A stretch of DNA of 986 nucleotides. Source: Escherichia coli (lineage in GTDB: Bacteria; Pseudomonadota; Gammaproteobacteria; Enterobacterales; Enterobacteriaceae). This document shows positions 1 through 986 of this stretch, piece by piece. Each line of letters opens with the position of its first letter. The first letter of the stretch is position 1. A program made the position numbers and the translations under genes. The stretch lies in assembly GCF_003334385.1 (NCBI RefSeq), contig NZ_QOWN01000137.1; one strand, 5' to 3'. The notes under the pieces are model-generated. The model was not told where the DNA came from. It saw only the letters and a program-made list of their open reading frames with translations, and ran no database searches.

Positions 1-986
1 GGGCCTGCATCACCTTTGGGACCAGCTGCACCAGCCGGTCCCCGTGGGCCTGCGGGCCCCACTGCACCAGGTGCGCCAGGTTCCCCCCTGTCCCCCTTCG
101 GTCCGGGGACTGCTGCCCGGGTTGCTGCCTCTTCTGCCTTCGTTTTTGCTGCCTGCACTTCTGCCATTACCGCTTTCACAGCCTTTGGGGTTGCCGCTTT
201 TGTTTCATCATCGCTGTTGGTATCGCTGCTCAGCTGTACAACACCTTTCTGTGATGTGCTGGCATCCGGAACACTGGCGACACTGCCTGCGGGACCCGCA
301 GGACCTGCGGGGCCGGTTTCTCCCCGAGGGCCTGCGGGACCTGCCGGACCTGTTGCGCCGGGTTCACCTTTATCCCCTTTCGGGCCGGTTTGCCCTGCCG
401 GACCCTGTGGTCCGGGTGGTCCGGCCTCTCCACGTGGGCCGGTGTCACCTTTCGGCCCCGGCGGTCCGCCCGGGTCACCTTTATCGCCCTTCGGTCCCTG
501 TGGACCTGTTTCTCCCCGTTCTCCCTTTGGCCCCGGCTCACCTTTTGGTCCGACCGCCCCCGTTGCCCCGGCTGGTCCCTGTGCCCCTGTGGCACCCTGT
601 GGACCTGTGTCCCCCTTCTCGCCCGCCGGTCCCCGGGCATTCTCTGCCCGTTTCTTCGCTTCCTCTGCACTCGCCGCCGACGCTTCAGCACGCTTCAGGA
701 TTTCCGCTGCCACCGCTTCCAGCTCTGCAAGCGCTTTCGGGTAATACTGCGCCTCATCCTGTTCCATCAGAAATTTATTCAGCGTTCCCGGCTCAGAATC
801 CGCCTTCACCAGAATGTCACCCACATACGACGGGGCGTACCCTTCCGTGTTCAGCGTCACCCGGTACCACCCCGGCTCCACATCAAAACTGTAACTGCCG
901 GTTTCCCCCGGCTGCCCCTGCGCCACCGTGGTGACTATCACTGTCTCTGTGGTGCGTCGCGCTTTCAGCTCTATGGTGCATCCCGG
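1..986 (-). CDS. stf: Phage side tail fiber protein, Stf-like, with collagen-like Gly-X-Y repeats; internal fragment, partial at both ends (N-terminus lies beyond position 986, C-terminus beyond position 1)
   Basis: Minus-strand frame with codons complementing 984-986 down to 3-5 is open for all 328 codons; I checked it codon by codon. Translation N to C: [328 protein letters not shown]. The N-terminal part resembles, from memory, the N-terminus of phage lambda Stf (CTIQLKARR...SQPGTLNDFL), and the VQLSS...AATPKAVK motif is the phage tail-fibre repeat signature. Codon usage (CTG Leu, AAA Lys, GAA Glu) is enterobacterial. The symbol stf is a family-level assignment, not a specific orthologue. 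No search was run. Confidence 0.92.
3..104 (-). repeat. Collagen-like Gly-X-Y repeat tract 2 (residues 295-328), at least 11 triplets, continuing beyond the window start
   Basis: [34 protein letters not shown] has perfect Gly periodicity from G295 to G328 and is truncated by the window edge. Confidence 0.88.
105..164 (-). other. Region encoding a short Ala/Lys/Glu-rich helical spacer (residues 275-294)
   Basis: [20 protein letters not shown] lies between the fibre repeat and the second collagen tract. Helix prediction is from composition only. Confidence 0.4.
165..254 (-). other. Region encoding a phage tail-fibre repeat motif (Phage_fiber_2-like), residues about 245-274
   Basis: [30 protein letters not shown] closely matches the conserved repeat remembered from lambda Stf and related fibres ([25 protein letters not shown]). 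Identified by eye, not by HMM. Confidence 0.75.
285..632 (-). repeat. Collagen-like Gly-X-Y repeat tract 1 (residues 119-234): 18 plus 20 triplets separated by a single extra Gly
   Basis: Gly occurs at every third residue from G119 to G170, then GG at residues 173-174 (+ coordinates 465-470) shifts the register by one, and periodicity continues from G174 to G234. X and Y positions are rich in Pro, Ala, Lys, Glu, Thr and Gln, typical of bacterial and phage collagen-like sequences. Confidence 0.9.
633..776 (-). other. Region encoding an Ala/Glu/Lys-rich predicted alpha-helical linker, possibly trimeric coiled coil (residues 71-118)
   Basis: Sequence [48 protein letters not shown] has a strongly helix-favouring composition with no Gly or Pro except one Pro. 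Helix or coiled-coil assignment is an inference from composition only. Confidence 0.5.
777..986 (-). other. Region encoding the conserved N-terminal tail-fibre domain (Phage_fiber_N-like, tail-attachment end), residues 1-70 of the window translation
   Basis: Residues [68 protein letters not shown] resemble the lambda Stf N-terminal region as I recall it. Composition is beta-rich and not collagen-like, and this DNA is less GC-biased than the collagen tract. The lambda comparison suggests the true start codon is roughly 15-20 codons beyond position 986. Confidence 0.75.

Follow-up and report, generated by a model that had tools for sequence, protein, structure and literature searches.

The window, by which we mean the whole stretch of 986 nucleotides analysed here, lies inside a single gene read on the minus strand, where frame 0 was open over all 986 nt. 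A sequence with 100% DNA identity to the window was found at locus JFX80_RS01000 of E. coli 2018-166, a chromosomal prophage gene whose product (WP_096849294.1) carries the RefSeq name "prophage tail fiber N-terminal domain-containing protein", and orf-401 of prophage P-EibA, an "ORF-401-like" gene, displayed 99% DNA identity to the window. The top PHROG match of the protein was phrog_366 (tail fiber; E = 3e-121). The open frame and the Pfam matches showed that the minus-strand frame and the collagen assignment given in the preliminary description were correct. The gene and its domains within the window are:

1-986, minus strand: codons 18-345, from the interior of a 520-codon side tail fibre gene of a lambdoid prophage (open frame and homology)
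636-986, minus strand: PfN domain (Pfam phage_tail_N, PF08400), residues 18-134 in the window (Pfam match over residues 1-134, E = 2.4e-42)
288-632, minus strand: collagen block 1, residues 136-250, consisting of 18 Gly-X-Y triplets, one extra Gly and 20 triplets (register parse)
135-260, minus strand: Pf2 phage tail fibre repeat (Phage_fiber_2, PF03406), residues 260-301, between the two collagen blocks (Pfam, E = 8.7e-16)
3-104, minus strand: start of collagen block 2, residues 312-345 (register parse; the block ends at residue 428, outside the window)

The N-terminal region matched a 94-aa chain of known structure (9e7m_Ta, "Tail fiber protein") over residues 1-91 (E = 4.8e-29), and the PfN region also had a Pfam match to PF13620, the carboxypeptidase regulatory-like domain (E = 3e-9). 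Collagen begins at residue 136, directly behind PfN, and a distinct PCoil region, about 110 aa long, is absent between them. Two Pfam Collagen (PF01391) matches covered residues 135-249 (E = 3e-8 and 7e-8), and the register parse placed glycine at every third residue in both blocks, with 38 triplets and one inserted Gly in block 1 and 39 uninterrupted triplets in block 2. A Pfam scan of the protein did not find PfC (PF06820) on the C-terminal region. NCBIfam matches to the Scl1, Scl2 and Lcl adhesins were rejected as far under the curated cut-offs (146 vs 325 bits, the others being similar); these matches reflect shared collagen composition and not family membership. The order PfN, collagen, Pf2, collagen is that of the EPclC architecture in the catalogue of Ghosh et al. 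(2012; PMC3368898), and by its domain order the window gene is best classed as an EPclC-type collagen-like prophage tail fibre.

The gene order (2018-166 and P-EibA loci) was minor tail gene L, C40 peptidase gene, tail assembly gene, gpJ, tail fibre gene, DUF4376 gene and YadA-C/Eib gene, with lom lying between J and the tail fibre gene in P-EibA and in PhiR5_1. The tail module in which the gene sits, behind J, is that of a lambdoid prophage, as is required of EPclC members. The second gene after the tail fibre gene has a YadA-C domain (8906-10231 of the 2018-166 locus; 3918-5096 of the P-EibA locus), and the P-EibA copy of this YadA-like gene is the immunoglobulin-binding protein EibA. This YadA-C-domain/Eib gene constitutes virulence-associated cargo directly after the tail fibre gene and its DUF4376 partner.

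Within collagen block 1 the preliminary description had flagged two stretches sharing an exact 11-mer inside an imperfect repeat. The 11-mer, TCACCTTTATC, was confirmed as exact at 364-374 and 475-485, with no further sites in the window even when 2 mismatches were allowed. The ungapped alignment around it extended to 356-386 vs 467-497 (26/31 nt identical), the best 26-nt stretch, counted from the 31-nt alignment, having 22/26 identical positions, slightly above the 20/26 given earlier. On the minus strand the two copies encode peptides (residues 218-227 vs 181-190) that agree at 9/10 amino acids, and of the 9 codons for these shared residues 4 show synonymous differences. The copies are:

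468-497, minus strand: flagged copy 1, double Lys-Gly-Asp motif (KGDKGD), residues 181-190, just N-terminal of the interruption (register parse, motif scan)
357-386, minus strand: flagged copy 2, double Lys-Gly-Asp/Glu motif (KGDKGE), residues 218-227 (register parse, motif scan)

The copies are spaced 111 nt, or 37 codons, apart, which is no whole number of Gly-X-Y units because one extra Gly lies between them. A stretch of the second collagen block of P-EibA (2243-2277 of its locus) was 91% identical to copy 2 over 35 nt, a better match to copy 2 than the flagged intragenic pair make to each other.

The similarity of the pair was compared with four Gly-X-Y-aware shuffle nulls applied to the 345 nt of collagen block 1. 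The share of shuffles reaching an exact repeat of at least 11 nt, a DNA match of at least 26/31 and a peptide match of at least 9/10 was, in that order:

Codons reordered inside each of the G, X and Y classes: 75%, 10%, 67%
Triplets reordered as whole units: 100%, 17%, 84%
Synonymous codons exchanged at constant protein sequence: 87%, 22%, 100%
Y-G-X units reordered: 95%, 22%, 83%

The similarity of the pair is at chance level for a Gly-X-Y sequence of such composition. For the 26/31 DNA identity codon usage alone suffices, since with the protein fixed 22% of synonymous shuffles reach it. The longest exact repeat of block 1 was a different 14-mer and not the flagged pair, and a blastn-short self-search returned several internal matches equal to or better than the pair, which had an E-value of 0.08 in a tiny database. 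A dinucleotide shuffle of the whole window reached two TCACCTTTATC matches in 5/200 shuffles; this apparent rarity was set aside, as the null ignores codon and triplet periodicity and the pattern was chosen post hoc.

The non-random feature here is a pairing rule, (K/R)-Gly-(D/E). Block 1 has Lys/Arg at Y positions only and Asp/Glu at X positions only, and all 11 of its 11 Y-position Lys/Arg residues are followed by Gly-Asp/Glu vs 3.4 expected (P < 1e-5; 0/100,000 X-shuffles). Block 2 displayed the same tendency more weakly (4 observed vs 1.1 expected, P = 0.005). Across 93 distinct collagen sets drawn from 120 homologues, 76% of Y-position K/R were followed by an acidic X residue vs 32% expected, and the double motif [KR]G[DE][KR]G[DE] occurred 1-8 times per protein (mean 3.4), KGDKGD and KGDKGE being among the commonest forms. 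The window holds four double motifs, each after Gly-Pro: KGERGE at residue 171, KGDKGD at 183, KGDKGE at 220 and KGDRGE at 314. Besides the two flagged copies these are:

510-527, minus strand: third double motif KGERGE, residues 171-176 (motif scan; inside the repeat-family member at 499-533)
81-98, minus strand: fourth double motif KGDRGE, residues 314-319, at the start of collagen block 2 (motif scan; reference repeat-family copy at 70-104)

A repeat search grouped the four double motifs and GEKGDT into one five-member family with 66-77% identity. By this grouping the flagged pair are two members of a motif class and no private duplication. KGD is also an integrin-binding motif, for example in the disintegrin barbourin; this reading was dropped, as the protein forms the stalk of a phage tail fibre, and its KGD fits the generic collagen Y-Gly-X pairing.

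Lys-Gly-Asp/Glu triplets have a described structural role. Interchain bridges form between Lys(i) and Asp/Glu(i+2) and between Lys(i) and Asp/Glu(i+5), the i+5 bridge running from Lys of the trailing chain to Asp/Glu of the leading chain (Malcor et al., 2025; PMC11923368). According to the same study KGE/KGD are anomalously frequent in bacterial and viral collagen-like proteins, raise kinetic stability, and form clusters, or "knots", around interruptions, viral and bacterial collagen-like proteins included. When this rule was applied to the window protein, K183 and K220 had an acid at both i+2 and i+5, and K186 and K223 had an acid at i+2. In a homotrimer three bridges each would be predicted for K183 and K220 and two each for K186 and K223, or about 5 per flagged motif. 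Three full-ring positions are predicted in block 1 (KGERGE 171, KGDKGD 183, KGDKGE 220). The predicted total for block 1 is 25 bridges with Arg included, Arg-Gly-Glu being counted here together with Lys-Gly-Asp/Glu and the cited geometry having been established for Lys.

The reading we favour, with a probability of roughly 0.82, is that the two "copies" belong to a set of four tandem G-P-K-G-(D/E)-(K/R)-G-(D/E) motifs in a trimeric stalk, and that their resemblance comes from the recurrence of one short peptide rule, without detectable duplication. The rule consists of a Lys/Arg at a Y position, then Gly, then Asp/Glu at the next X. A Y-position Lys (i) could pair with Asp/Glu i+2 on the next chain, giving two bridges per homotrimer in a helix without hydroxyproline, and pairing of Lys (i) with Asp/Glu i+5, trailing chain to leading chain, would close the ring. 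As KGDKG(D/E) satisfies both the i+2 and the i+5 geometry, each flagged motif would be a dense cluster of about 5 predicted interchain ion pairs. E. coli is without prolyl hydroxylase. Pro at X and the high proportion of charged residues are the factors that Ghosh et al. tentatively invoked (PMC3368898). A true collagen triple helix in a trimer was demonstrated by experiment for EPclA and EPclB only (PMC3368898); in the predicted EPclC helix, the bridges would probably form and stabilise it. The earlier suggestion that recurring charged triplets could form interchain salt bridges held as far as spacing is concerned, which both the sequence statistics and the literature support, and the actual bridges are what we infer from it.

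Copy 1 lies directly before the only break in the Gly-X-Y register of block 1:

456-479, minus strand: single Gly-X-Y interruption G-D-P-G-G-P-P-G, residues 187-194, right after copy 1 (register parse)

A conserved G-X-P-G-G-P-X-G interruption in the first collagen domain was reported by Ghosh et al. (2012; PMC3368898), and the interruption in the window matches this form. The interruption was present in 61/120 homologues. Among the 20 distinct interruption contexts in the homologues, 16 had [KR]G[DE][KR]G[DE] directly before PGG and 11 had [KR]G[DE] one triplet beyond the interruption. This association fits the published pattern in which knots flank interruptions; since the 20 contexts are homologous, it reflects conservation and not independent recurrence or convergence. 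Copy 1 abuts the one-residue interruption and its motif may clamp it, most plausibly by holding the helix register beside a weak or hinge point. A stronger version, tentative and on balance doubtful, is that the double K-G-D/E motif before G-X-P-G-G-P-X-G is a dedicated, family-conserved register clamp that would allow the stalk to tolerate a one-residue insertion as a hinge or module junction. If so, motif and interruption together would be a functional unit of tail fibre architecture and not general charge decoration.

The stalk is length-polymorphic and modular. Homologues P0009-P0015 have a 21-aa in-frame deletion (residues 216-236; window 330-392), apparently between GPAG...GPAG repeats, that removes copy 2. 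Copy 2 is dispensable in these natural variants and so no single motif is essential. Homologue P0016 has a 55-aa deletion in which the first 18 triplets and the extra Gly are gone, so that the copy-1 half is lost and the helix is uninterrupted again, and P0020 has a larger deletion in the collagen region. In phage PhiR12_5 (650-2200 of its locus) the copy-2 segment is swapped for a different collagen sequence, and in phage 1720a-02 the first collagen ends at ...KGEKGEPGGP, as does the collagen of homologue P0032. Block 1 behaves as two separable modules that meet at GG. A short unit between the copies also varies:

414-422, minus strand: 9-nt unit GGACCACCC (Gly-Pro-Pro), residues 206-208, copy number varying among phages (comparison with PhiR5_1 and P-EibA)

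The window has one GGACCACCC unit and phage PhiR5_1 has two. P-EibA is 3 nt shorter at this site, which would add a second register break; this difference could be an error in an older (AF-series) GenBank record.

The preliminary description had taken the pair as evidence of an ancient internal duplication of collagen triplets, in which case the flagged stretches would be diverged copies of an old triplet block, possibly of a 37-codon unit whose junction made the extra Gly. We regard this as improbable. Collagen domains grow by duplication, the halves of block 1 act as separable modules in P0016, 1720a-02 and P0032, and offset 111 gave the top ungapped self-alignment in block 1 (112 nt, 71/112 identities, 63%, score 30), its arms abutting at the extra Gly. 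This maximum score was, however, lower than shuffled blocks reached on average (maxima 33.4 +/- 6.2), and an identity of 63% is simply the in-register background, other in-register offsets of block 1 giving 63-66%; a 37-codon tandem duplication at this offset was rejected for these reasons. The 11-mer, 26/31 and 9/10 matches are all common in shuffles, DNA identity is not raised with the protein fixed, and the synonymous differences at 4/9 shared codons likewise speak against it. DNA and protein self-similarity fall inside all of the shuffle distributions, leaving the duplication unsupported. A self-alignment had been set beforehand as the check, with self-similarity no higher than that expected of Gly-X-Y sequence named as the outcome that would count against duplication, and this was the outcome obtained. 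As for a duplication decayed to background similarity, nothing in the sequence appears to point to it.

Two further explanations assign the similarity to the DNA and not to the peptide rule. The repeat might act in DNA, with recombination or slippage at its short homology altering the length of the tail fibre or exchanging modules, and the collagen region is indeed an indel and mosaic hot spot (the 21-aa, 55-aa and P0020 deletions, the GPP unit copy number, the PhiR12_5 replacement). Ghosh et al. noted that collagen lengths differ by multiples of three residues (PMC3368898). Recombination between the copies would, however, delete 37 codons, and no fusion allele joining both copies was present among the 120 homologues listed; the deletions seen use other short repeats, such as GPAG...GPAG, and none of the observed deletion or indel junctions uses the flagged pair, which makes a role of this kind very unlikely. 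The probability that the similarity is due to a plus-strand feature, an RNA or a regulatory element is close to nil. The plus strand has long ORFs of 242 and 296 aa, but these were rejected: every Pfam, PHROG and RefSeq assignment points to the product of the minus strand, and the ORFs are a by-product of GGN/CCN-rich sequence. An Rfam search of the window gave no match, so no RNA element was found, and together these results refute a reading of this kind. The recurring peptide rule is the explanation that we retain.

For short exact repeats in Gly-X-Y coding sequence, a periodicity-aware null is needed before duplication is read into them. The recurrence in the window reflects strict (K/R)-Gly-(D/E) pairing, and the result is mostly negative or clarifying, adding little beyond correct annotation. 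What hosts the prophages of pathogenic E. coli can infect depends in part on such tail fibres, and the prophage type described here has, besides, an Eib-type YadA-like gene downstream.

The closest known systems are the EPclC proteins, the list of which includes P-EibA ORF-401 (479 aa) and ECED1_2081 (520 aa; collagen 118 + 117 aa) (Table 3, PMC3368898). The window gene shares with them the PfN-collagen-Pf2-collagen order, the lack of PF06820 at the C-terminus and the same interruption of the first domain. ECED1_2081, compared by lengths alone, has the total length and the collagen lengths of the window gene. P-EibA orf-401 differs in the second collagen block, in the C-terminus and by the 3-nt indel in block 1, none of which is a difference of kind. 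Lambda Stf (orf-401/orf-314) has the N-terminal PfN and the Pf2 repeat in common with the window gene and occupies the same genomic position, downstream of J and upstream of a tail-fibre-assembly-like gene, but is absent from the list of collagen-like proteins and has an unrelated distal receptor-binding part.

The KGE/KGD motifs described by Malcor et al. (PMC11923368) resemble those of the window in having Lys at Y and Asp/Glu at the next X, in the i+2/i+5 spacing and in clustering by an interruption; a difference is that the bridges in the window protein are predicted from its sequence. Scl2 of Streptococcus pyogenes is the hydroxyproline-free example in that study (PMC11923368), and the host of the window gene is likewise without prolyl hydroxylation. 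Compared to Scl2, the EPcl collagens have fewer charged residues (22% vs 30%) and far more Pro at X (PMC3368898). The gene, its domains, the interruption and the charge-rich X/Y preferences (2012), as well as the KGD/KGE rule, are all already described in these systems.
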